Positions 9,569-21,434 of a DNA stretch of 46,626 nt are shown here, in pieces. The notes under the pieces are model-generated. The model did no database searches. It was not told the origin of the DNA and was given only the letters and a program-made list of their open reading frames with translations. Position numbers and translations under genes: made by a program. The stretch comes from Myxococcales bacterium. Lineage in GTDB: Bacteria > Myxococcota_A > UBA9042 > JABWCM01 > BTVJ01. The stretch lies in assembly GCA_045863395.1 (NCBI GenBank), contig BTVJ01000058.1, positions 1 to 46,626 on the forward strand, read 5' to 3'. The stretch's first letter is position 1. The number at the start of each line of letters is the position of its first letter.

Positions 9569-9990
9569 TCGGAGGGGCAGCCGCAGTCGCCCGTAAGCCG
9601 AGTTCTGTCCCCCGCGTCGGTTGCCCTCCGCGGGGTGATGGCCATTCGTCTGGGAGCCGCGTTGCCGCGACCCTCGAGCGATCATACCCGGGAGCTCGGG
9701 CGGGCCGCCCTCTCCGGACCCGAAGGTCCGGGCGCTCCTCTATTCGATCTTGCTCCGGGTGGGGTTTGCCGCGCGCGACCGTCGCCGGCCGCGGCCGTGA
9801 GCTCTTGCCTCACGCTTTCACCGTGACGCGCCGGCCTCTCGCGAGGCGGGCACGCCGACTGCTCTCTGTGGCACTTTCCTTGGGGTTGCCCCCACTGGAC
9901 GTTATCCAGCACCCTGCCCTGTGGAGCTCGGACTTTCCTCCAGCGCTCGCGCGCCAGCGGCCATCTGTTCGGCTGCGGCTGCCCCTCCGA
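9569..9990 (-). ncRNA. rnpB: Ribonuclease P RNA, bacterial type A
   Basis: Minus strand has GAGGAAAGTCCGAGCTCCACAGGGCAGGGTGC, GGAAAGTGCCACAGA, GGTGAAAG, GGCAAACCCCACCCGGAGCAAGA and ACAGAACTCGGCTTA. Ends are complementary (P1). The mature core is probably ~9583-9976. Confidence 0.97.
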
Positions 9991-10037: not shown

Positions 10038-10781
10038 TCACCCGGCGGACGCCTGCGGGGCCGCCGGATCCCTGTGCTGCTCCACGAACATGAAGCGTTG
10101 GCACGACGGGCAGTTCAGGATCGTCTCGAACTTGAGCAGCTCGATGAGCATCTGTGGGGGGACCCGCCGGTTGCACCCGAGGCAGGTTCCGTCCCTGCTC
10201 ACCTCGACGACACCCACGCCGTTGCGGGCGGCGACGATGCGCTCGTAGCGGCGGACGACCTGGACGGAGAGGCGCTTCCGGCCCTCCTCCTTGCGGGCGT
10301 CGATCTCGCCGATGCGGCTCTCCAGCTCGCTCAGCTTCTCGGCGTTGGTGTCCTCCTCCTGCTTCAGCTCGGCGCGGAGCTCGTCGAGCTTGGCCTGCTC
10401 GGTAGCGATGCTGACCTTGAACTCCTCGATGGCATCGAGGAGCTTGAGGATCTCTTCCTCCTTCTGCTGGTTGGACTTGCGGAGGAACTCGATCTCCTTC
10501 TGCGCCGCCACGAACTCCTTGGACTTGGCGATGGCGGACAGCTTGCTCTTGGCCGACTTGACGCGCTCCACGTCGTCCTTGAGCTCGGTGTTCTTCTCGC
10601 GGTACCACTTCTCGGCCTCCGCGAGCTTCTTGCGCTTGTCCTCCATCGCCTCCTCGCCCCGGGCGAGGATCTCTCTCAGGCGCTCGAGCCGCGCTCGCAG
10701 TGCGTCGCGGGCATCCGAGTACACGCGGATCTCGGTGTCCGCCGCCTGAAGGGTCTTCAGTGCATCGAGCGTGTCCTTCAA
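10038..10781 (-). CDS. C4-type zinc-ribbon coiled-coil protein (DUF164 / HP0958 / CT398 family)
   Basis: TTG start after GGAGG gives LKDTLDALKTLQAADTEI; long coiled coil; C-terminal CLGCNRRVPPQ..CPSCQRFM. Confidence 0.9.
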   Translation of the reverse strand: MKDTLDALKTLQAADTEIRVYSDARDALRARLERLREILARGEEAMEDKRKKLAEAEKWYREKNTELKDDVERVKSAKSKLSAIAKSKEFVAAQKEIEFLRKSNQQKEEEILKLLDAIEEFKVSIATEQAKLDELRAELKQEEDTNAEKLSELESRIGEIDARKEEGRKRLSVQVVRRYERIVAARNGVGVVEVSRDGTCLGCNRRVPPQMLIELLKFETILNCPSCQRFMFVEQHRDPAAPQASAG

Positions 10782-11032
10782 ATCAGGCCTCCGTGAGCTG
10801 TCACTGGCCGCCCGTGCGCGTGGCGCCGCGCAGAGTGTCGACCCCTGAAACGGGAAACGGCGCCAGAGATCTGGCGCCGTTCCATCGTCCACCCCGGTGT
10901 TGCGCAGCCACTGCGCAACCCCTGGCCTTCGTTGCATGCCTCTCCGGTCATCCTTCACACCGCGAGTGCCCGCCAGCGCCGGCCCGCCATTCCGTCCTGC
11001 CTGTCGCCCCGTGGATGGAGCGATCTCGACTC

Positions 11033-11104
11033 TGGGCCCACCTGGATTCGAACCAGGGACGTGACGGTTATGAGCCGCCGGCTCTACCGCTGAGCTACAG
11101 GCCC
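11033..11104 (-). tRNA. tRNA with CAT anticodon, most likely tRNA-Ile2 (lysidine-modified); CCA not encoded
   Basis: GGGCCTGTAGCTCAGCGGTAGAGCCGGCGGCTCATAACCGTCACGTCCCTGGTTCGAATCCAGGTGGGCCCA folds as a cloverleaf. The GGGCC acceptor stem is typical of Ile2, and initiator features (C1 mismatch, 3 G-C anticodon pairs) are absent. Confidence 0.93.
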
Positions 11105-11128
11105 ACTTGGCTCTTTCGAGCGGCACGT

Positions 11129-11157
11129 ATCCTATGACCGCGGAACCGCAAGGTCAA
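11129..11157 (-). promoter_or_regulatory. Putative sigma70 promoter for the tRNA (and downstream zinc-ribbon/rnpB region)
   Basis: Minus strand TTGACC-N17-TAGGAT, about 25 nt upstream of the tRNA 5' end. Confidence 0.6.
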
Positions 11158-12097
11158 GCTCCATGTCCTGCGCGGGCCCCAAGGTACGCCACTGGGGGCC
11201 GTGGCAGTCGGACTTGAACGGACAGCGGACGCACTCCGCCACGTCGTCCGTCCGCGGGAACGCGTCCTCGTCTGCGACATTGCGCGCAGGGTCGCGCAGC
11301 GCGGCCTTCATCTCCGCGATGCTGGCCCGCATCGCCTGCTGCACGTCGACGAGCCGGGCCTCGTCGATGCGCCGCTCGTGCCCCTTGGCCAGCCCCAGGT
11401 TGTACTCGATCGTCAGCACCTCGTCCGGCGTCGCCCCCCACCTCAGTGTGGCGAACAGGGCGTAGCAGGCGAGCTGCACCGGGTCGGGCTCGTCGGCCCA
11501 GTGCCCCGTCTTCCAGTCGACGATGCACACGGTGCCGTCCGCGCGACGCCAGGCCACGTCCGGCACCACCCAGACCTTCGTCCCCTCGAAGTCGAAGCTC
11601 TCCATGCCCTCGACGGACAGCCACGCGTCGCGAGGGATCCCCGCCAGCTCTGCTGGGAAGGGAGAGGCGTAGAAGGCGCTCAGGCAGGCCGCGACCTTGT
11701 CGCGAACGGCCCTCCACTCCTCGTCGGGGAGCTCCTCGCCGTAGTAGAGCTCGAAGAGATCCGTGGTCCCCTTGCGGCCCCAGCGGCCGGCGCGCCCGCT
11801 CCGGTAGTCGTCACGGAGCTGGCGCAGCGCCTCCTCCTGGGCCTGCTCCTCCGGCGGGAGGCACCCGGCACGGAGCCCCAGGAGCGCCTCCTCGATGGTG
11901 TCGTGCACGACGGTGCCCGCCCACATCCAGCGGCTCTTGAGCTTCTTCAGGAGGTAGATGCGCCGCGTCCGCTCGTCGGCGTCGCGATCCCAGCCGTTCC
12001 AGGACCCGTAGTAGTTGTACCAGTACTTGCGACCGCAGGTGCGGAACATGGAGTCCCGGGAGCGGGACCAGGTGAGCTCGTTCACGAGGCGACCCAT
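11132..12097 (-). CDS. PD-(D/E)XK nuclease, AddB/Cas4-like with putative Fe-S cysteines
   Basis: WSRSR..TCGRKYWY, GTVVHDTIE, PDVAW..IVDWKTG, QLACYA, CVRCPFKSDC (1+3 Cys arrangement). Confidence 0.85.
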   Translation of the reverse strand: MGRLVNELTWSRSRDSMFRTCGRKYWYNYYGSWNGWDRDADERTRRIYLLKKLKSRWMWAGTVVHDTIEEALLGLRAGCLPPEEQAQEEALRQLRDDYRSGRAGRWGRKGTTDLFELYYGEELPDEEWRAVRDKVAACLSAFYASPFPAELAGIPRDAWLSVEGMESFDFEGTKVWVVPDVAWRRADGTVCIVDWKTGHWADEPDPVQLACYALFATLRWGATPDEVLTIEYNLGLAKGHERRIDEARLVDVQQAMRASIAEMKAALRDPARNVADEDAFPRTDDVAECVRCPFKSDCHGPQWRTLGPAQDMELDLAVPRS

Positions 12098-12173
12098 GGC
12101 CTGCACCATAGATCGCGCCGCTGCGAAACAGCAAGCACCTTGACGCGGCCGCTCCCGTCGGCAGGATGGGTCC

Positions 12174-12950
12174 ATGGCTCGCCCCACCACCCTCCGGTAC
12201 CGCTGCGGCTCCTGCGACAACCTGCTGGCGGCGCCCTCGCGCTGGTCCGGGCGCTCGGCAGTCTGTCCGCGGTGTGACGCCACCCAGGTCGTGCCCACCC
12301 AGGACGATCCCCTGGCCGCTCGCCCCGTGGCCGGGAGCGCCCCCACCGTCGCGGGCCCGTCCCTCACGGAGCTCGTGCGCATCGCCCCGGGGCCGGCGCC
12401 GCGGCGATCCCGCCGCGCCTGGATCTGGGCGATCCTCCTCCTTGGCATCGGCGCGACGGCCTTCGCCGGCTGGCACGTCTGGCGGACGCGCTTCGCCCCG
12501 GAGGCCGTGGCCCGCCGCAACGCCGTCTCGTCGCAAGGGCGCGTCGCCTGGCCCCGCCTGGCCAAGCTGGAGAAGAACAACGCCCGGAACCCGACCGACC
12601 GGCGCGCGGCGCGGCGCCTCGCCGCCGCCTACGAGCGGGTCATCGAGGACGCGGGTCCGCGGGGCGCCAAGGGGATCGTCGGCGTCTACAACAACGCCGC
12701 GTGGCTGTACGCGACGACCCCGGTCGAGTCGGTCCGGGACGTGAAGCGGGCCCTCCGGTACGCGGAGACGGCGGTCCAGCTCTCCGGCGGCGAGGAGGCG
12801 GTGTTCCTGGACACCCTGGCCGAGGCGCTCCATCGGAACGGTCAAGTGGCAGAGGCCGTGCGGGTCGCGGAGAAGGCCGTGGCGCTGCGCCCCGACCTGG
12901 ACGACCTTCGCGAGCACCTGGAGACGTACAAGGCGGCCCTCCCCCCTTGA
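12174..12950 (+). CDS. Zinc-ribbon / single TM / TPR protein
   Basis: CGSC..CPRC at the N-terminus; TM WIWAILLLGIGATAFAGW; TPR-like NNAAWLYAT..LDTLAEALHRNG..AEKAVALRPD. Confidence 0.75.
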   Translation: MARPTTLRYRCGSCDNLLAAPSRWSGRSAVCPRCDATQVVPTQDDPLAARPVAGSAPTVAGPSLTELVRIAPGPAPRRSRRAWIWAILLLGIGATAFAGWHVWRTRFAPEAVARRNAVSSQGRVAWPRLAKLEKNNARNPTDRRAARRLAAAYERVIEDAGPRGAKGIVGVYNNAAWLYATTPVESVRDVKRALRYAETAVQLSGGEEAVFLDTLAEALHRNGQVAEAVRVAEKAVALRPDLDDLREHLETYKAALPP

Positions 12951-12998: not shown

Positions 12999-13027
12999 TT
13001 GCCACCCAGGCGCCCCGCCGGTATCCT
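12999..13027 (+). promoter_or_regulatory. Putative sigma70 promoter of the ATPase-helicase operon
   Basis: TTGCCA-N17-TATCCT, followed by GGGAGG and TTG at 13057. Confidence 0.5.
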
Positions 13028-13056
13028 GCCGTGCCACCACCACCCGGGAGGGACCG

Positions 13057-13911
13057 TTGGGCACCGACACCAAGGCCGTAATCAAGCACGTCGAGGGCCT
13101 GGCCTCGGCGTTCAAGGACCTCGCCGCCGCCGCCCGCCAGCTCGCGAAGCTGGACCCCGAGCTGGAGCGCAACGTGTGGGTGGCCGACGCGGCGCTCGTC
13201 TCCGCGGAGAAGGCGCTGTCCACCGTGGGCGCCGTCGTGCCCCTGGCGGACGCGCGAGCCTGGGTGGGCGTTCTGCGCCAGCGGGTCGACGCGCTCAAGG
13301 ATCGGGCGCGCTCCCAGACCGCGGCTGCCCTGTCCCGGGAGCTGGCGGCGTTGGGCCTGGGCCTGGAGGGGACCATCCCGGAGCTCCGCTGCGGCGTGCT
13401 CACCCTGGAGCTGGTCTTCGAGCGCGCAGAGGTGCGGATCCACTTCGGGCCGCGCATCGCCCAGCTCGCCAAGGCGCCGCTCGACGCCAAGGAGGCGGCG
13501 GCCGCGGTCAAGGCGGCCCTGGACGCCCTGTCGCCGGCCCCGCTGGACGAGCCTGCGTACATCGCGGAGGTCCACGGGGCGTGGCGCCGGGCGTGCCTCC
13601 TCGGCGGCCAGGACACCGCCACCGGCGCGACGGTCCCCATCGTCGCCGTGCTCGATCAGATGGCGTGGGGTCGCCAGAGCGCCCGGTTCCGCGCCAACCC
13701 CACGCGCGAGAGCTTCGAGGGCTACGGGCGCGTGCAGCTCGCGTGGGATCTCTACCGCCTGTCGCTCCGCACGCACGGGGACCTGGAGCTCAAGCTGACC
13801 GTCGCCACCCGAGAGCAGACCCGCTCCGAGGCCGAGAACCTGTGGGTCCCGCGCACGGCCCGGGGGGAGGGCACCCACTTCGCAGGCGTGGCCTTCCGGA
13901 GGACCGCATGA
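13057..13911 (+). CDS. Hypothetical protein, first gene of the ATPase-ATPase-helicase operon
   Basis: TTG start with GGGAGG RBS; 284 aa; helical N-terminus; stop overlaps the next ATG (ATGA). No recognised domain. Confidence 0.75.
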   Translation: MGTDTKAVIKHVEGLASAFKDLAAAARQLAKLDPELERNVWVADAALVSAEKALSTVGAVVPLADARAWVGVLRQRVDALKDRARSQTAAALSRELAALGLGLEGTIPELRCGVLTLELVFERAEVRIHFGPRIAQLAKAPLDAKEAAAAVKAALDALSPAPLDEPAYIAEVHGAWRRACLLGGQDTATGATVPIVAVLDQMAWGRQSARFRANPTRESFEGYGRVQLAWDLYRLSLRTHGDLELKLTVATREQTRSEAENLWVPRTARGEGTHFAGVAFRRTA

Positions 13912-15170
13912 CGGTGCCCATCGAGCGCCCCCTCGCGCGCCGCATCATCGAGACCGTCGGCGCCTACGGGGCGCCGCCCGAGTGGGGCTTCCAGCTCTTC
14001 AGCGCCGGCATCGGCCCCTACCTGGACGTCCTCGACAAGGACTACCTGGGCGACTTCATCGCCGGGGGCGGGGCCTCCTTCAAGCTCGTGGTGGGGGCCT
14101 ACGGCGGCGGCAAGACCCACTTCTTGTATTCGGTGCGGGAGCTGGCGTGGCGCCACCGTTACGCGGTCGCCTACGTGCCCCTGTCCGCGGAGGAGAGCCC
14201 GCTGCATCGACTGGAATTGGTCTACCGCGCCATCGTGCAGAGCCTGACGCCGCCGCTGGAGCCCGAGGAGCTGTTTCGCGGGGCGGAGCGCGGCTTCGAC
14301 GCCTTCTTGAAGAGCTGGCTCGCGGAGACAAGGGCTCGCCTGGCCGCCGAGGGGCTGACCGGGACGGAGCTCAAGGCCGCGCTGCTCGCCGAGGCGGGGC
14401 GCAGCCTGGACGAGGTGGAGAGCGTCAACTTCTGCCAGGCGGTGCGCCACCTGGTCGAGGCGCTCGTCGAGGGCCGCGACGACGATGCCCTGAACGTCCT
14501 CCAGTGGATCACGGTGCAGGGCTACGACCGCATGACCCACAAGCAGTATGGCATCCTGCACCCGGTGGACCGCAGCCACGCCTTCTCGATGATCCGCTCG
14601 CTGGTCCGGTGGGTGCGGAACCTGGGCTACACGGGCCTCGCCATTCTCTTCGACGAGGCGGAGCAGGTGCCGAGCCTGTCGAGCAAGCAGCGCGAGATCA
14701 TGCTCTCCAACCTGCGCGAGATCGTCGACGAGTGCGGCCACGCGGCCTTCCGCAACGTGCTGATCCTGTACGCCATCCCCGACATGGGCTTCTTCGAGGG
14801 GCGCTCCAACGTGTACGAGGCGCTCAAGCAGCGCATCTCGACCGTCTTCGACTTCGTCAACCCCACTGGCGTGCGCATCGACCTGGAGCGGGTCATGGGT
14901 GGGGAGCCGGTCGCGCTCCTGCGAGAGATCGGCCAGCGCCTCGCGGACATCTTTCAGGCTGCGTTCGCCGTGACGCTCGCGGAGGATCGGGTCGCCCTGG
15001 CCCTGCGCCTGGTCGCCGAGGCCGCCTACGAGCAGCGCTTCGGGGACATCGGGTACAAGCGCGTCTTCGTCCAGGGTGCGGTCCGGGCGCTCCACAGCCT
15101 GCGCGCCCTTCCCGATCTGCGCCCGGATGAGGCGTGGGCGGCGGGCATCGTCGCGGGGGCGCCGGCGTGA
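13908..15170 (+). CDS. P-loop ATPase, DUF2791 / BrxD / Shango SngB-like
   Basis: ASFKLVVGAYGGGKTHFL (Walker A); GYTGLAILFDEAE (Walker B); ELVYRAIV motif; ATG 13908 after GGAGG. Confidence 0.8.
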   Translation: MTVPIERPLARRIIETVGAYGAPPEWGFQLFSAGIGPYLDVLDKDYLGDFIAGGGASFKLVVGAYGGGKTHFLYSVRELAWRHRYAVAYVPLSAEESPLHRLELVYRAIVQSLTPPLEPEELFRGAERGFDAFLKSWLAETRARLAAEGLTGTELKAALLAEAGRSLDEVESVNFCQAVRHLVEALVEGRDDDALNVLQWITVQGYDRMTHKQYGILHPVDRSHAFSMIRSLVRWVRNLGYTGLAILFDEAEQVPSLSSKQREIMLSNLREIVDECGHAAFRNVLILYAIPDMGFFEGRSNVYEALKQRISTVFDFVNPTGVRIDLERVMGGEPVALLREIGQRLADIFQAAFAVTLAEDRVALALRLVAEAAYEQRFGDIGYKRVFVQGAVRALHSLRALPDLRPDEAWAAGIVAGAPA

Positions 15171-16525
15171 GCCTCCGCCGCGGCTCCCAGGTGATGCACC
15201 CACGGTGGCACCGCGGCGTCGTGGTGGACACGCGCCACAAGGGCTTCGACGTGCTGGTGCGCTTCGGGAGCGAGTCGGTGTGGGTCCGCGCCTCGGAGCT
15301 CCGCGCCGAAGCGGAGCCCGAGGTGCCGCCCGAGCAGCTCGCCCGCGCCCGCGCCGCGCGCATGGACCGGGAGCGGCGGGACAACCCCGGGCGTCTCCAG
15401 GACCTGAGGGGACTCTTCGAGGCGCTCCGGTTGGGCATCGTGCCCCACGGCGCCATCGTGGACTGGACCTTCGGCCGGGACCGGGAGGTGAGCGCGATAC
15501 AAGGGTGGCTCGCGGACCAGGCCTACGGGTCCCTGGTGCTGGAGGGCGCCTACGGGAGCGGCAAGACCCACCTCCTCGAGGTGCTCTACGCCAAGGCCAT
15601 CGCGATGGGCTACGCGGTGACCCGCGTGGGCTTCGACCCCACTGAGGCTCCGGCCGCCTTCCCGAAGCGGGTGTACCGCCGCATCGTCCGGGAGGTGAGG
15701 GTCCCCGTCGGTGGTCGCGTCCTCGGGTTCCGCGAGGCGCTGCGGGAGGCCGCGTCGAGCGATGCGGTCCGCGGTCACCCGGTGCTCGGGCCCGCCCTGG
15801 AGCGTATTCGTAGCGGGAAGATGACCGCGAAGAGCTGGGAGGCGCTGGAGGGGCGCGACAGCGGCGCGGACGACGTCAGCGGGCTCCACGACTACACCAC
15901 GACCGCCAACATCTACTGCAACATCCTGTCGGGGCTCGGGAACCTGTTCGTGCAGGCCCACGGCGCGCTCGGCTTCCTCGTGCTCCTCGACGAGGTGGAG
16001 ACCGCCCAGACCTGGCAGTACCACTACCAGTGGAGCCGCGGCATCAACCTGTTCCACGGGCTGTCCTTGACCGCCAACGACCACCCGGAGCTGCTGGACG
16101 AGGCCGTCGTGAAGCGCAAGGACGGCTACCGTGGAGCAGAGACGGGCCTCGTCTATTCGGGGCACAACCGGGTGCCCTACCTGTGGTCGCTGCCCAGCTA
16201 TCTGAAGGTCGTGTTCGCGATCACCCCTGGGGCGTTCACGAAGCGCTTCCTCGACTGGCACCCGGAGCAGCCGGTCCTGACCCTGTCCACGCTGCCGTCG
16301 GACAGCGTGGGCCAGCTCTTCGAGCGTCTGGCCGACGCCTATGAGCTGGTCCACGGGCTCTCTGTGGACCGCCCGGGCCGCGACCTGCTGCTGTCGCTCG
16401 CCAGGCGAAGGTCCCAGGACGGCACGACGCGTGTGACCATCAAGGCGATGATCGAGGCGCTGGACTTTCTGCGCTTCCACCCCGGGCGGCCCGCGAAGGA
16501 CCTGCTCGACGAGCCCGCGTGGTAG
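15167..16525 (+). CDS. Second DUF2791 / BrxD-like P-loop ATPase with small N-terminal SH3/Tudor-like domain
   Basis: FEALRLGIVP..GRDREV, LEGAYGSGKTHLL, GFLVLLDEVE. N-terminal VMHPRWHRGVVV..VLVRF. GTGA overlap with the previous gene. Confidence 0.8.
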   Translation: MSLRRGSQVMHPRWHRGVVVDTRHKGFDVLVRFGSESVWVRASELRAEAEPEVPPEQLARARAARMDRERRDNPGRLQDLRGLFEALRLGIVPHGAIVDWTFGRDREVSAIQGWLADQAYGSLVLEGAYGSGKTHLLEVLYAKAIAMGYAVTRVGFDPTEAPAAFPKRVYRRIVREVRVPVGGRVLGFREALREAASSDAVRGHPVLGPALERIRSGKMTAKSWEALEGRDSGADDVSGLHDYTTTANIYCNILSGLGNLFVQAHGALGFLVLLDEVETAQTWQYHYQWSRGINLFHGLSLTANDHPELLDEAVVKRKDGYRGAETGLVYSGHNRVPYLWSLPSYLKVVFAITPGAFTKRFLDWHPEQPVLTLSTLPSDSVGQLFERLADAYELVHGLSVDRPGRDLLLSLARRRSQDGTTRVTIKAMIEALDFLRFHPGRPAKDLLDEPAW

Positions 16526-18102
16526 ACGAGGTCGCGCTGACGGCGCGGCTCCGGCGTCGCCTGGGATCACTGTGGCAGCCGCTCTTCGGGCGCTTCGGGC
16601 GCCTGACTCCCATCCAGCTCGCGCTGATGCCCGCGCTGCTCTCCGGGCGCGACGCGCTGGCCTGCGCGCCCACGGCCAGCGGCAAGACCGAGGCGGCCGT
16701 CGCCCCGGTGGCGCTCCGGCTCCGGGAGGGGAGGGCCGGGGGCATCCGCGCCCTCTGGGTGGTGCCGACCCGGGCGCTGGTCAACGACCTGGACCAGCGC
16801 CTGCGCGGCCCGCTCCGGGACGCGGGGCTGACGCTTGGCGTGCGCACGGGCGACCGGCGCGAGGTGCGGGCCGGGCGCCTGGAGGACCTGGTCGTCACGA
16901 CGCCCGAGTCCCTGGACTCCATGATCTGCCGGATTCCCGACGCCTGGGGCGGTCTCCAGGCGTGCGTGCTCGACGAGGTCCACCTGCTCGACGGGACGCC
17001 CCGGGGCGACCAGCTCCGCGTGCTGCTGCAGCGCCTCCGCGTCGCTGCGTCTGGAGGTTTCCAGTCCGTGGCCCTGTCCGCGACGCTGCACGATCCAGGG
17101 GCAGTGGCCGCGCGCTACCTGGGCGGGGATGCCGCCGTCATCCAGGTGGGCGGCGCCCGCACCCTGACGCAGACCGTCGTGGGCTCGTTGGAAGAGGCGG
17201 TCGCGACCCTGCGCGCCGAGGAGCGGCACAAGGCGCTGATCTTCGGGAACACCCGCCGGGAGGTCGAGGAGGCCGCCGTCGCGCTCCGGGCTTGGTGGCC
17301 GGGCGACCGCATCGCCGTCCACCACGGCAGCCTCGCCCGCAAGGAGCGCGAGAGCGTCGAGGCTGCGATGCGGTCGTGGCGCTGGGGCCTCCTCGTGGCG
17401 ACGACGACGCTGGAGCTCGGCGTCGACATCGGGGATCTGGACGCGGTGGTGCTGCTTCGCCCCCCGTCGAGCCCTTCGTCCTACCAGCAGCGAATCGGGC
17501 GCGCCAACCGGCGGGAGGCGGTCATCCGCGTGATTGGCGTGGCCACGACGGAGGCTGAGGGCGAGGTGTTCGCGTCCCTGGCCGACCTGGCCCGTGACGG
17601 CGTGGTCGAGGCACGCGGAGATGCGCCCGACCCCTCGGTGCTCGTTCAGCAGACGCTGAGCATCGCGTATCAGCGCCGGGCGGGCGTCCCGTCCGCGGAG
17701 CTCTCGGCGCTCCTCGCGCCCATCGATCCGGGCGGTCTCTTGCCGTCGGTGCTCGCGTGGCTGGCGGACGAGGGCTGGCTACGCCGTGTGGCGGATCGCT
17801 ACGCCCCCACGGATCGCACCATGGACCTGGGGGAGCGCGGCACTTTGCACTCCAACATCCCCGACTCCCGGGAGCTGACGCTGGTGGACACGACGACCGG
17901 GCGCCCCCTCGGGCAGCTCACGACCGGGGCGACTCCCGGCTCGCGGCTCCTCTTTTCGGGGCGCGGCTGGCTGGTGCTCTCCGTGAGCGGCACGACGGCG
18001 ACGGTGGCGCCCATCCCGCGGGAACAGGCCGTGGCGTGGTTCGGCGCGCGCTCCGAGGTGGGCGCCTTCCGGTGGCTGCTGCCGCCGGAGCTGCGTCAGT
18101 AG
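16519..18102 (+). CDS. Lhr-like SF2 DEAD/DEAH helicase (BrxHI / Shango SngC-like)
   Basis: LTPIQ, APTASGKTEAA, PTRALVND, TTPESLDSM, LDEVH, SAT, HHGSL, ATTTLELGVDIGD, QRIGRANR. Confidence 0.9.
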   Translation: MVDEVALTARLRRRLGSLWQPLFGRFGRLTPIQLALMPALLSGRDALACAPTASGKTEAAVAPVALRLREGRAGGIRALWVVPTRALVNDLDQRLRGPLRDAGLTLGVRTGDRREVRAGRLEDLVVTTPESLDSMICRIPDAWGGLQACVLDEVHLLDGTPRGDQLRVLLQRLRVAASGGFQSVALSATLHDPGAVAARYLGGDAAVIQVGGARTLTQTVVGSLEEAVATLRAEERHKALIFGNTRREVEEAAVALRAWWPGDRIAVHHGSLARKERESVEAAMRSWRWGLLVATTTLELGVDIGDLDAVVLLRPPSSPSSYQQRIGRANRREAVIRVIGVATTEAEGEVFASLADLARDGVVEARGDAPDPSVLVQQTLSIAYQRRAGVPSAELSALLAPIDPGGLLPSVLAWLADEGWLRRVADRYAPTDRTMDLGERGTLHSNIPDSRELTLVDTTTGRPLGQLTTGATPGSRLLFSGRGWLVLSVSGTTATVAPIPREQAVAWFGARSEVGAFRWLLPPELRQ

Positions 18103-21100
18103 CAGTAGCCGCAGATCGAGCAGGCGTCCGAGCAGCAGTCGCCTGCGGAGACACAGATCGAGTCGCAGTAGCAGTTGCCGGCGTAGGAGTAGGAGTCGCA
18201 GTTGCCCGCGCAGCCAGTACCCGTCGACCCCATGCAGTAGCCGCAGTTGTCGCAGGCGTCGTTGCAGCAGTCGCCGAAGCCGACGCAGGCGCTGTCGCAC
18301 CAGCACCCGTCCGGTGCTTGCGAGCCGCAGTTGCCGGCGCAGCCGCCGCAGCCGCCGCCGCAGGACTTGCAGGCCGTGGCGCAGGCGGCGTCCCAGATCA
18401 CGGAGCAGCACTCGGGCTTCTGGGCGCAGACGCAGGACTCGCAGGTGCAGCCGGCGCAGGTGGGGTTCGCCCAGGCCTTGCACCCGTCGCTCTTTGGGCA
18501 CATCTCCGGGAAGGCGCAGTCGTCCGCACACGTGAAGCAGTCCTCATCGCCGTTGCACTCGCCGTCACCGCACACGGGGAAGAAGCAGTCAGTGAGGAGC
18601 TTCACGTCGTCCACGAAGATGCCCCCCCCGTCGTGCGCCCAGGCCGTGTTGTCGGCGATGGCGACGAGCTGGAGCCGCACCACCTTGCCGCCCCACTTCT
18701 TCAGGCTCACCGACTGGTTGGTCCACGCGGTGCTCGGGCTGAGGGAGCTGCTCGACCAGGCGAGCTCCTGCTTGCCGTCCACGAGCACGCGCACCTCCAG
18801 GTCGGCGTCGTTATCGGAGTCCAGCACCAGGTCGAAGGTCAGCGCGAGCGTGTAGCTCGGGGGCAGGGCCAGGAGCCCGGTGGTCAGCGAGCTCGTGGCC
18901 GGACCGAAGTTCATGTCCCCGGTCGTCGTGCTGCCGAACCAGAGCGAGCGCAGCCCTGTCTTGGCCTTGGCCGTCGTGAGCTGGAAGCCTCCAGCAGTGC
19001 TCGAGTTCACGATGGTCACGGCGCCCTCCAGCTCCTCCAGCGACTCGAAGCCGAGCGCCAGGATGGGCCCCTCCGGGCAGCAGCCCTCGTCCGCCGCCGG
19101 CCCGTGCTTGCACAGGTGGCCGAACCCGCAGGTGTCCGCCGTACAGGGGTCATCGTCGTCACACTCGGCGTCCTGCTCGCAGCAGGCCCCCGGGTTCACG
19201 CACTGGCCGACAACGCACAGGTCCTCGGTGCAGTCGTCGTCGTCGACGCAGTCCGCGTCCGCGGCGCAGCAACCTGGCACAGCCTCGTGGGTGCAGAGGC
19301 CCCCTGCCACCGGGCAGGAGTCCGTCGTGCAGGGGTCACCGTCGAAGCAGTCCAGGTCGGCCTCGCACGTCTGGAGCCCGCAGTCCTCGCCGCAGCCGAG
19401 CTGGCAGGCAGCGACGCACGTGGCGTCCCACGCGACGGAGCAACAGAGCGGGTCTTTCGCGCACACGCACTCCTCGCAGGCGCACCCGTCGCAGCCGGGC
19501 TCCGGCCGCGCCTGGCAGCCCGCGTGCTCGAAGCAGCCGCCGCAGGTGCCCTGGCACAGGGCCACGCAGTCTGCGTCCCAGGCCGTGTTGCAGCAGTAGC
19601 TGTCCTTCTGGCAGGCGCACGCCTCGCACACGCACCCGCCGCAGGTGGGCTCGGAGCCCTTGACGCACCCGCTGGAGAGAGGGCAGGTCCCGCAGTCGCC
19701 GGGGCAGGTGGCGCAGTTCTCGCCGAAGCTCGGCTCGCAGGCCGTGTTGCCGCAGTGGGCCTCGCAGACGTTTCCATAGCAGGCGGTCCCCTTGGCGCAG
19801 GTCCCGCAGGAGCCGCCGCAGCCGTTGTCGCCGCACTGCTTGCCCGCGCAGCTCGGCGTGCAGGGGCACATGCCGCAGGCCGAGCAGGCGTCCGCGCAGC
19901 AGTCGCCGAAGCTCACGCAGGACGAGTCACACCAGCAGCCGCCCGCGCTGCCGCCACAGTTGCCGACGCAGGAGCTGCCGCCACCGCCGCCGCACACGCT
20001 GAAGTAGTCCGAGCAGCAGTCGCCCCAGAGAGAGCAGGAGGAGTCGCAGTAACAACTGCCGCTCGGAGACGAGCCACCGCAGTTGCCCGCGCAGGAGTTG
20101 GCCCCGCCGCCCCCGCCACCGCAGTTGGTCCCGCACTGGCTGCACTCGTCCACGCACAAAGAGTCCCAGGCGTTGTTGCAGCAGTATGGGTCCATGCCGC
20201 AGACGCAGGACTCGCAGGCGCAGCCGCCGCACCCGGGGCTGTTGCTCTGGGTGCAGCCCCCGTCGGGTGGGGTGATCACGGGCCCGCAGTCCATGCCGCA
20301 GTCACCCTTGCACAGGCCGACGCAGGACTCGTCCCAGTGGACGTTGCAGCAGAACGGGTCGAGGGCGCAGACGCAGCCCTCGCAGGAGCAGCCGCCGCAG
20401 CCGGGCTCTTCCGTCGGCTTGCACCCCGACGTGCACACCACCTTGCCGCCCTTGCACTGGCCACCCTGGCAGGTCTCGCCCTCGGTGCACCCGTTCTTGT
20501 CGTTGCACGGGTCGCCCTCCGAGAGTGTGACGGTCTTGCAGAGGCCCGTGTCGGGGACGCACTGGGTCACGTCGCAGCCCGTGTCCTTGGACGTGTCGCA
20601 CTTGGGGATGGTCGCCGGGTCTGGCTTGCAGTAGCCGCCCAGGCACCGGGTGATGCCGTCGCACAGGTTGCCGTCCTCGTAGGGGGCGCAGTCCGCGTCT
20701 GTCTCGCAGGTCGGGCAGGCCGGCTCACCCGCCTTGCACTCGCCGTCCTCGCAGAAGTCGCTGGCCGTGCACACGTCGCCGTCCTCGCAGAGTCCTGACT
20801 TGGGGAGGTACGTGCAGCCGGTCTTGGCGTCGCAGCCGTCCGCCGTGCAGGGGTTGCCGTCGTCGCAGGTCTTGGGCTTGCCCGCGCACACGCCACCCGC
20901 GCAGGTGTCCCCCGCCGTGCAGGGGTTGTCGTCGTCGCACGCCGCCTTGTTGGGCGAGGAGACGCAGCCGGAGACCGGGTTGCAGGCGTCGTCGGTGCAG
21001 GGGTTGTCGTCCTCGCAGGTCTTCGCGGCGCCAGCGGTGCAGGCGCCCTCCTGGCACGTATCGCCCACGGTGCACTGGTTGCCGTCGTCGCACGGGCTGC

Positions 21101-21434
21101 CGTTGTCCGCCGCCACCGCGGCGCAGGCGCTCGTCTCCGACAGGCAGGCCGCCTTGGTGCAGGGCGCGAGCTCGCCGAGGATCGCCACGCAGTCCGCGTC
21201 TGCCTTGCAGGGGGTCCCGGCGTCCGGTGCAGGCCCGGTGTCCGGGGTGCCCGTGTCCGGCTCGCCCACGTCGGGGGCCCCCATGTCCGGTTCGCCCACG
21301 TCCTCGATGAGTTGGACGTCGTCGGCTGCCCCCGTGTCCTGCGCGCCGGCCGCACTGCCGGCCTCGTCAGGGCACGCGGTCAGCGTGGTTGCCAGCAGCG
21401 CGGCCAGAGCGGTCGACAAAAGGCGCATGGACAT
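18096..21434 (-). CDS. Large cysteine-rich lipoprotein (CDDGNPCT-type repeats, somatomedin-B-like repeats, other Cys repeats, one beta-sandwich domain)
   Basis: ATG 21434 after GGAGG; lipobox TLTAC; repeated CDDxNPCTxDxC; CxGNCGG..CxCDSxCxxxGDCCxD four times; PxCxGCxCExCVC..CC..WDxxC five times. Confidence 0.85.
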   Translation of the reverse strand: MSMRLLSTALAALLATTLTACPDEAGSAAGAQDTGAADDVQLIEDVGEPDMGAPDVGEPDTGTPDTGPAPDAGTPCKADADCVAILGELAPCTKAACLSETSACAAVAADNGSPCDDGNQCTVGDTCQEGACTAGAAKTCEDDNPCTDDACNPVSGCVSSPNKAACDDDNPCTAGDTCAGGVCAGKPKTCDDGNPCTADGCDAKTGCTYLPKSGLCEDGDVCTASDFCEDGECKAGEPACPTCETDADCAPYEDGNLCDGITRCLGGYCKPDPATIPKCDTSKDTGCDVTQCVPDTGLCKTVTLSEGDPCNDKNGCTEGETCQGGQCKGGKVVCTSGCKPTEEPGCGGCSCEGCVCALDPFCCNVHWDESCVGLCKGDCGMDCGPVITPPDGGCTQSNSPGCGGCACESCVCGMDPYCCNNAWDSLCVDECSQCGTNCGGGGGGANSCAGNCGGSSPSGSCYCDSSCSLWGDCCSDYFSVCGGGGGSSCVGNCGGSAGGCWCDSSCVSFGDCCADACSACGMCPCTPSCAGKQCGDNGCGGSCGTCAKGTACYGNVCEAHCGNTACEPSFGENCATCPGDCGTCPLSSGCVKGSEPTCGGCVCEACACQKDSYCCNTAWDADCVALCQGTCGGCFEHAGCQARPEPGCDGCACEECVCAKDPLCCSVAWDATCVAACQLGCGEDCGLQTCEADLDCFDGDPCTTDSCPVAGGLCTHEAVPGCCAADADCVDDDDCTEDLCVVGQCVNPGACCEQDAECDDDDPCTADTCGFGHLCKHGPAADEGCCPEGPILALGFESLEELEGAVTIVNSSTAGGFQLTTAKAKTGLRSLWFGSTTTGDMNFGPATSSLTTGLLALPPSYTLALTFDLVLDSDNDADLEVRVLVDGKQELAWSSSSLSPSTAWTNQSVSLKKWGGKVVRLQLVAIADNTAWAHDGGGIFVDDVKLLTDCFFPVCGDGECNGDEDCFTCADDCAFPEMCPKSDGCKAWANPTCAGCTCESCVCAQKPECCSVIWDAACATACKSCGGGCGGCAGNCGSQAPDGCWCDSACVGFGDCCNDACDNCGYCMGSTGTGCAGNCDSYSYAGNCYCDSICVSAGDCCSDACSICGYCY

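Follow-up and report, generated by a model that had tools for sequence, protein, structure and literature searches.

In the 46,626-nucleotide stretch of Myxococcales DNA analysed here (contig BTVJ01000058.1, hereafter the window), four genes on the forward strand form a real and intact operon encoding a protein of no named family, two unlike AAA+ ATPases and an Lhr-like helicase, and this operon is neither BREX type 2 nor Shango. The four genes have been passed down like ordinary chromosomal genes, and may therefore well encode an unnamed machine that loads the helicase on the cell's own DNA. About an even chance is given here to the reading that the cassette is a resident genome-upkeep machine, in which an asymmetric ORC/Cdc6-like loader serves the Lhr-like helicase. 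The original prediction had taken the same genes for an anti-phage system. New relative to it are an N-terminal Tudor domain in the second ATPase, a predicted winged helix in the first gene product, and a putative arginine finger that is invariant in the first ATPase and not conserved in the second. The operon comprises the following features.

12999..13027, + strand: putative sigma-70-like promoter, TTGCCA-17-TATCCT
13057..13911, + strand: gene 1, unnamed family, 284 amino acids (aa), no family match
13534..13908, + strand: predicted winged-helix-like domain of gene 1, residues 160-284, from a fold search; predicted DNA-binding module
13908..15170, + strand: ATPase A, BrxD/SngB-like AAA+ protein, 420 aa, PF10923
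15167..16525, + strand: ATPase B, divergent paralogue of A, 452 aa, PF10923
15176..15316, + strand: N-terminal UvrD/PcrA-type Tudor of ATPase B, residues 4-50, from a profile compared with the PDB
16519..18102, + strand: Lhr/BrxHI-like SF2 helicase, 527 aa, BrxHI and SngC profile matches

The operon and its four proteins

The four open reading frames (ORFs) are intact at 13057-13911, 13908-15170, 15167-16525 and 16519-18102, co-oriented and translationally coupled as previously described, with ATGA at 13908, GTGA at 15167 and a 7-nt overlap at 16519. Gene 1 starts with TTG, with GGAGG at 13047-13051, and the GTG start of ATPase B at 15167 is supported because the N-terminal domain of its homologues starts at the same place. 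The sigma-70-like promoter placed ahead of the operon was recovered (one site found against 0.1 expected), and of 85 loci, 37 have such a site in the 150 nt ahead of gene 1, where base shuffles give 7.0 on average. At many of the loci L088-L120, whose records are titled WOR-3 or unnamed bacteria, near-consensus sigma-70 promoters stand only 8-15 nt before the called gene 1 start, which suggests leaderless or very short leaders at many of them. The operon is covered in two metatranscriptome runs of one study, in which its neighbours are covered alike and DNA carry-over is possible. One contig of run X2 has a one-base deletion in the helicase gene (window position 17576) that is not seen in X1 and may be a strain variant or an assembly error.

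The two ATPases are indeed divergent paralogous P-loop proteins. Their Walker A motifs read GAYGGGKT (A) and GAYGSGKT (B) and their Walker B motifs AILFDE and LVLLDE, and hhalign joins them at 99.9% over 339 columns with 19% identity. Both match PF10923, the family proposed for checking, at 156.6 bits (A) and 58 bits (B). In PADLOC they score higher as BrxD (154.5 and 50.8 bits) than as SngB (66.5 and 25.4 bits), and against the BrxD equivalog NF033438 they reach 158.9 and 52 bits, far below its 350-bit cut-off. ATPase A forms its own clade in the tree, apart from canonical BrxD/SngB (support 99/99). By sequence, no solved relatives of ATPase A were found and no match to solved ORC/Cdc6. In A, Walker A K69-T70, Walker B D249-E250, the putative arginine finger R309 and the putative sensor-II residue R385 are each present in 79 of 79 sequences; in B the same holds for Walker A K133, Walker B D275-E276 and the putative sensor-II residue R422, and the stretch aligned to R309 has no conserved arginine (best column 33/79). 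The names finger and sensor-II are presumed from position in the AAA+ fold, together with the BrxD description in PMC12839542. A hetero-oligomeric ATPase had been raised as a possibility, and a finger that is invariant in A and not conserved in B fits it.

Gene 1 is the unrecognised protein it was said to be, with no match in Pfam, PADLOC or NCBIfam. Its family spans 699 clusters at 50% identity, and among 150 members there was no meaningful Pfam match, the TerB Pfam included (0/150). The structure model (predicted local distance difference test, pLDDT, 97.3) consists of a predicted three-helix bundle at the N-terminus, a small beta-sheet domain and a winged-helix-like C-terminal domain; the protein has no strongly hydrophobic segment. 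A known fold for the whole protein was sought and rejected: Foldseek gave no match at E<=0.001, the whole-protein VIA rows span only a generic three-helix bundle, and Atlas matches above TM 0.5 are unnamed clusters only. For the C-terminal domain alone, the fold search placed ORC1/Cdc6 winged helices at the top (7jpo_A, a modest Z of 5.8, root-mean-square deviation 3.9, 82 aligned positions), tied with many other winged helices. From the modelled fold, this domain may bind DNA. In a three-chain prediction that combined residues 60-284 of gene 1 with ATPases A and B, the complex scored 0.54 against 0.00 for the best control, and 0.00 once A was replaced; the runs agree in at least 70% of contacts, with a partner pLDDT of at least 84. 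Of 157 solved pairs, 116 pass the mark for such scores, as do 2 of 215 mismatched pairs; among those that pass, 18 solved pairs and both mismatched ones lie at or below 0.60. No solved complex resembling this one was found by sequence. The model weakly suggests that gene 1 contacts ATPase A.

A domain of about 45 residues precedes the ATPase in 88 of 98 ATPase B sequences. Each of the top eight PDB matches of its profile is a UvrD/PcrA C-terminal domain (best E 2.7e-5), PF21196 is matched in 22 of 76 Tudor pieces at E<=0.1, and the profile also detects, weakly, the C-terminus of the host's own UvrD (domain E 0.15). The domain is homologous to the UvrD/PcrA C-terminal Tudor: the equivalents of PcrA His681 and Phe705 are invariant (76/76), the Trp684 equivalent is aromatic in most pieces and the Leu714 equivalent aliphatic. 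It differs in standing N-terminal on an AAA+ ATPase and in having no conserved Lys712 equivalent; its own invariant residues are Arg23 and Trp39. The PcrA Tudor binds a TGE hairpin of RpoB and UvrB, according to PMC8318588, and PcrA K712 (UvrD K708) is required for RNA polymerase binding, according to PMC5397179. The hairpin is present in host RpoB in 17 of 24 sequences scanned, the window's genome included. Since the K712 equivalent is not conserved, RNA polymerase is not fixed as the Tudor partner and stands as one candidate. A hairpin of the cassette helicase (residues about 452-460, VDxxTG[R/K]) that is similar to the PcrA helicase-interaction motif was also considered as a Tudor target and is not used as evidence: none of 74 helicases has the strict form of the motif, conservation does not extend to its glutamate, and loci that have lost the Tudor still keep the hairpin. 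The strict motif is likewise absent from gene 1, ATPase A and ATPase B. Three small ORFs elsewhere in the window's genome (G000:C15:83164-83712, C8:157418-157966 and C1:408641-409339; L182-L184) end in a weak UvrD-like Tudor pattern (E 0.08-1.1), with no Pfam match for the two that were scanned; they are possible further Tudor adaptor proteins.

The last gene was correctly called an Lhr-type helicase. All SF2 motifs are present in it, DEVH included; motifs I, II, III, V and VI (GK, DExH, SAT, TxExGxD, QRxGR) are conserved at 92-100% in 65 helicase sequences, and its closest solved relatives are mycobacterial Lhr (closest structures 5v9x and 7lhl, its likeness to Lhr and Lhr-Core). It differs from Lhr-Core in length, 527 aa against 800-900 aa, and in an operon without a partner nuclease gene (MPE, RNase T). 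The match to the BrxHI model covers positions 21-528 of 698 (236 bits; SngC, 198 bits), so that positions 529-698, the Lhr-type C-terminal domain, are absent; 37 of the 65 relatives are shorter than BrxHI and 28 are long enough for that domain. At one locus (L153:4195-8903, in G028) the gene immediately after a displaced cassette helicase codes for a repair helicase of the MrfA/HRQ1 type.

The missing BrxHI C-terminal domain and the low NF033438 scores of both ATPases could be signs of a decayed or orphan BREX or Shango remnant without a function of its own. This is very improbable: the frames are intact, catalytic residues are invariant in 79 of 79 sequences, gene order is conserved over many phyla, and the clade is well supported and apart from canonical BrxD/SngB. 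Judged from sequence, conservation largely refutes a remnant.

Distribution, inheritance and the question of defence

Gene order was followed in the best 80 of 399 GTDB loci confirmed for ATPase A, 14 of them repeat contigs. All four genes are in order in 58, in line with the conserved order that was expected. A and B are adjacent in 79, the other being cut; gene 1 is absent with room for it in two and cut in two; and the helicase is cut in 11 and directly follows in 60 of the 69 with room. Among 25 same-class loci the order gene 1-A-B is found in 24 (the remaining one is cut by a contig end), followed by the helicase in 17, and 20 further phylum loci from the match list comprise 12 complete cassettes, four with gene 1-A-B and four with gene 1 alone. 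The database loci are spread over about ten phyla, the record titles spanning Myxococcota, Desulfobacterota, Nitrospinae, WOR-3, Gemmatimonadota, Acidobacteriota, Poribacteria, Chloroflexota, Atribacterota and two archaea. All four genes also occur at L072, in a record titled Anaeromyxobacter dehalogenans. The cassette is present in 27 of 41 related genomes. Gene 1 was matched in 67 of 251 phylum genomes, solidly in 65 and as a single copy in 62 of these, and its presence clumps by family (12/12, 15/23, 2/20, 0/18).

Several features of the cassette are those of ordinary chromosomal genes. Like the RpoB tree, that of ATPase A keeps together families f5, f8 and f10, six pairs at genus or family level and the group f4+f12+f14; the comparison used a quick search, had no RpoB match for 2 of 27 genomes and included three partial sequences. 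GC content at third codon positions (GC3) is 0.92-0.95, equal to that of host genes. The same tRNA-Met and nuclease neighbours stand beside the cassette in another family of the same order, and pseudouridine synthase, Lon-like protease, NAD kinase, ClpP and SecDF recur as flanks. Where the operon has been split, orthologous parts are kept elsewhere in the genome (G010, G028, G253, G043), the helicase in three genomes. No orthologues were found in 72,556 plasmids or 50,697 phages, collections in which canonical BrxD/SngB gave 656 plasmid records.

Alternatively, the cassette may be a defence system against phages or plasmids that has become domesticated, forming a third branch next to Shango and the BREX-2 tail; this is a real possibility at less than an even chance. 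In that case gene 1 and the Tudor would detect a phage protein or foreign DNA, whereupon the ATPases would set the helicase free and the invader would be stalled by unwinding or by ATP drain. The nearest profiles are BrxD, BrxHI, SngB and SngC, every relative of the ATPase-helicase pair that has been characterised belongs to a defence system, and the cassette is patchy across phyla, two archaeal records included. Shango too has no nuclease and gives modest protection, according to 10.1101/2022.11.11.516204. Flanks were scanned with PADLOC over 310 genes, two on each side by our own gene calls, at 95 loci, among which kin are not independent. Matches were found in 23 of the 310 genes at 18 loci, counts without a random-gene baseline, and most were generic (kinase, UvrD, FtsK-like, primase-like, ABC, sigma-54 activator). 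About five loci lie clearly beside defence genes (L038, L042, L043, L067, L113) and about six are ambiguous (among them L032, L041, L090 and L152, and the Cas4-like nuclease beside the cassette in the window); a 'mad2' match at L041 was dropped, being a cyclopropane synthase by Pfam. Loss of the Tudor was considered as a tracker of defence context and is suggestive only: three of the five clear loci are Tudor-less (L038, L042, L043), L041-L043 are kin, and the Tudor-less L045, L058, L064 and L099 sit among ordinary genes.

Four gene 1 homologues from four families form a subfamily of their own (support 100 in a fast tree of 17 rows) and follow SMC-like and HerA-like ATPases that match the DndD and DndH models. 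Each of these operons holds an SMC/Rad50-like ATPase, an approximately 490-aa HerA-like ATPase and a gene 1 homologue.

L170:1781-6362: SMC/Rad50-like, HerA-like and gene 1 homologue
L174:10332-13511: the same arrangement
L176:10524-14795: the same arrangement
L038:1806-8859: the same arrangement, DndD-/DndH-like in PADLOC

One member of the subfamily also keeps Tudor-less A and B, and the operon is absent from the window's genome. From its gene content, this patchy operon looks like a candidate defence system, and its make-up appears to show that gene 1 works as a portable adaptor.

The defence relatives, the defence-like neighbours and the SMC-HerA operons all count against a resident upkeep machine, and so do the following observations. 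The winged-helix Z scores of gene 1 fall in the range usual for unrelated folds. The deep branches of the ATPase A tree are open or discordant (G016, and extra copies in G011 and G024), and 57% identity across phyla suggests past transfer. Plasmid and phage collections are poor in elements from these phyla. Whole families lack the module, which is therefore not essential. The helicase is absent with room for it in nine of the 80 loci, and its orthologue was not found in G001, G003, G012 and G133, genomes 92-99% complete that keep gene 1-A-B. The Tudor was not seen in 10 of 98 ATPase B sequences, and the equivalent of PcrA Lys712/UvrD K708 is conserved in neither register, with Arg there in 27 or 7 of 76. 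Upstream of gene 1, no palindrome is shared by more than four of 85 regions, and no shared operator that would suggest damage induction was seen.

Set against a defensive role, on the other hand, are the family-wide single-copy presence, the tree agreement with RpoB, the host-like codon use, the conserved housekeeping flanks, the parts retained after operon splitting, and the 77 of 95 loci with no PADLOC match in two genes on either side. An anti-phage system, the original prediction, no longer leads, since only about five of 95 loci are clearly beside defence genes and inheritance looks vertical; the enrichment near defence genes proposed for checking appears largely lacking, the flank matches within two genes on each side being few and mostly generic.

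The four genomes that keep gene 1-A-B and in which no helicase orthologue was found imply that these three genes are the core, and the helicase a usual, not obligatory, client. Taken further, gene 1, A and B could be an ATP-driven, DNA-bound remodeller or regulator of a protein reached through the Tudor (e.g. RNA polymerase), with the helicase an optional passenger. The near-constant adjacency of A and B (79/80), a helicase that is the gene most often moved or missing, and the TGE hairpin of host RpoB, a PcrA-binding motif in PMC8318588, would agree with this. It is nevertheless quite unlikely, as the helicase directly follows in 60 of 69 loci with room, three genomes with a split operon retain its orthologue, the ATPase-helicase pairing is ancestral to BREX-2 and Shango, and the key Tudor lysine is missing.

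Proposed mechanism and relation to known systems

Beyond the motifs, we infer every step of the following scheme for a resident loader. The winged helix of gene 1 would bind DNA and position an A/B hetero-oligomer there. ATPase A would supply an arginine finger in trans to its neighbour, and ATPase B, without a finger, would cap the oligomer. Carried on a long and variable linker, the Tudor would tether the complex to a protein partner, of which RNA polymerase is one candidate. The complex of gene 1, A and B would then load or switch on the Lhr-like helicase, which may track 3'-5' and clear forks or RNA-DNA hybrids as Lhr does; Lhr helicases are 3'-5' translocases on such substrates, according to PMC7437997.

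For BREX and Shango, the definitions used come from PMC12839542 and 10.1101/2022.11.11.516204. With BrxD-BrxHI of BREX type 2 the cassette shares an Lhr/Ski2-like helicase immediately preceded by a PF10923 AAA+ ATPase, with BrxD and BrxHI as best PADLOC matches. It differs in that its ATPases are two dissimilar proteins, of which one bears a Tudor, in an extra protein with a predicted winged helix, and in the lack of PglW, PglX, PglZ and BrxC; its ATPases fall below the BrxD cut-off, its helicase is without the BrxHI C-terminal domain, and it forms a separate clade inherited by lineage. With Shango it shares a stand-alone operon running from accessory gene to ATPase to helicase with no nuclease, whereas its ATPase is doubled, gene 1 is not SngA and has no strongly hydrophobic segment, and it seems not to lie typically in defence hotspots. 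The claim that gene 1 occupies the SngA position thus stands for its place in the operon and not for kinship, as the SngA model does not match it (the same model matches control locus L159 at 2e-95). With ORC/Cdc6 the cassette shares AAA+ subunits of the same clade that are paralogues and differ in their putative arginine fingers and, tentatively, a predicted winged-helix-like domain with ORC1/Cdc6 as top structural matches; it differs in that a gene of its own encodes the predicted winged helix, the client would be a monomer-type SF2 helicase and not an MCM ring, and no origin is known. BrxD itself is classed as ORC/Cdc6-like and is a proposed loader of BrxHI in PMC12839542.

None of PglW, PglX, PglZ and BrxC was found among the window's called genes, and no TerB-like gene stands next to the operon, as had been noted; nor were PglZ, PglX, PglW, BrxC or SngA found among the 310 flank genes. 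Of six control loci with canonical BrxD/SngB (top PF10923 matches), five lie beside PglZ, PglX or BrxC and one beside SngA. Two of the five BREX loci belong to the window's genome, where they are separate from the cassette.

G000:C43 ~57000-66481 (L148): canonical BREX, BrxD-BrxHI with PglZ and PglX
G000:C3 ~226000-238000 (L149): canonical BREX, BrxD-BrxHI with PglZ and PglX, BrxC seen

With its order conserved and no defined system fitting it, the operon is, as proposed, a distinct four-component relative of BrxD-BrxHI and SngB-SngC. No paper on it was found in a literature search outside which most subscription papers lay; a listing in the supplement of PMC12839542 is possible, and the accessible part of 10.1101/2025.09.30.679545 does not cover it.

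Neither a solved structure nor an established mechanism is known for BrxD/SngB ATPases or the helicases they go with, and the loader role is so far only a proposal. The cassette offers a small, effector-free, four-protein version in which this proposal could be tested, with the predictions that the finger is in A only, that B caps and that gene 1 binds DNA. If genome upkeep holds, the cassette would stand for a pathway of repair or conflict resolution not described before, found in roughly one in four of the phylum's sampled genomes and in several uncultured phyla, and for a housekeeping origin of a defence module; if the cassette is defensive, it would be a widespread system missed by PADLOC 2.0. 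A fuller version of the upkeep reading, which we consider rather doubtful, would make it a bacterial chromosomal ORC-like split initiator whose UvrD-type Tudor finds transcription complexes and whose Lhr-like helicase is loaded there against R-loops or stalled forks; BrxD-BrxHI of BREX-2 and Shango would then have branched off from a housekeeping loader into defence, and gene 1 would be a portable adaptor also recruited to the SMC-HerA system.

Neighbouring genes of the window

The window has the following features around the cassette.

9579-9976, - strand: RNase P RNA (rnpB), core-genome cluster
10041-10781, - strand: C4 zinc-ribbon coiled-coil gene, core-genome cluster
11032-11105, - strand: tRNA-Met(CAT), core-genome cluster
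11135-12109, - strand: Cas4-like PD-(D/E)XK nuclease next to tRNA-Met (PADLOC Aga_Cas4-like, 2e-23)
12174-12950, + strand: protein with zinc ribbon, membrane segment and tetratricopeptide repeats (TPR), immediately upstream on the same strand; at other loci not conserved next to the cassette
18099-21434, - strand: large cysteine-rich secreted-type protein, abutting the helicase stop codon
3-5795, - strand: large cysteine-rich secreted-type protein

The window is core-genome-like, given rnpB, the C4 zinc-ribbon gene and tRNA-Met upstream and the host-like GC3. Integration at the tRNA-Met was considered and rejected: the cassette lies on the tRNA's 5' side, with rnpB and the C4 zinc-ribbon gene on its 3' side and no island; GC and GC3 are host-like; and a tRNA is present at 2 of 25 loci checked. 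The Cas4-like nuclease was likewise set aside as an effector, being beside the cassette in 2 of 92 distinct loci, and is treated as an ancestral neighbour; its arrangement with tRNA-Met also occurs beside the cassette in G001. The two cysteine-rich proteins contain Dictyostelium-type repeats and thrombospondin type 3 repeats.

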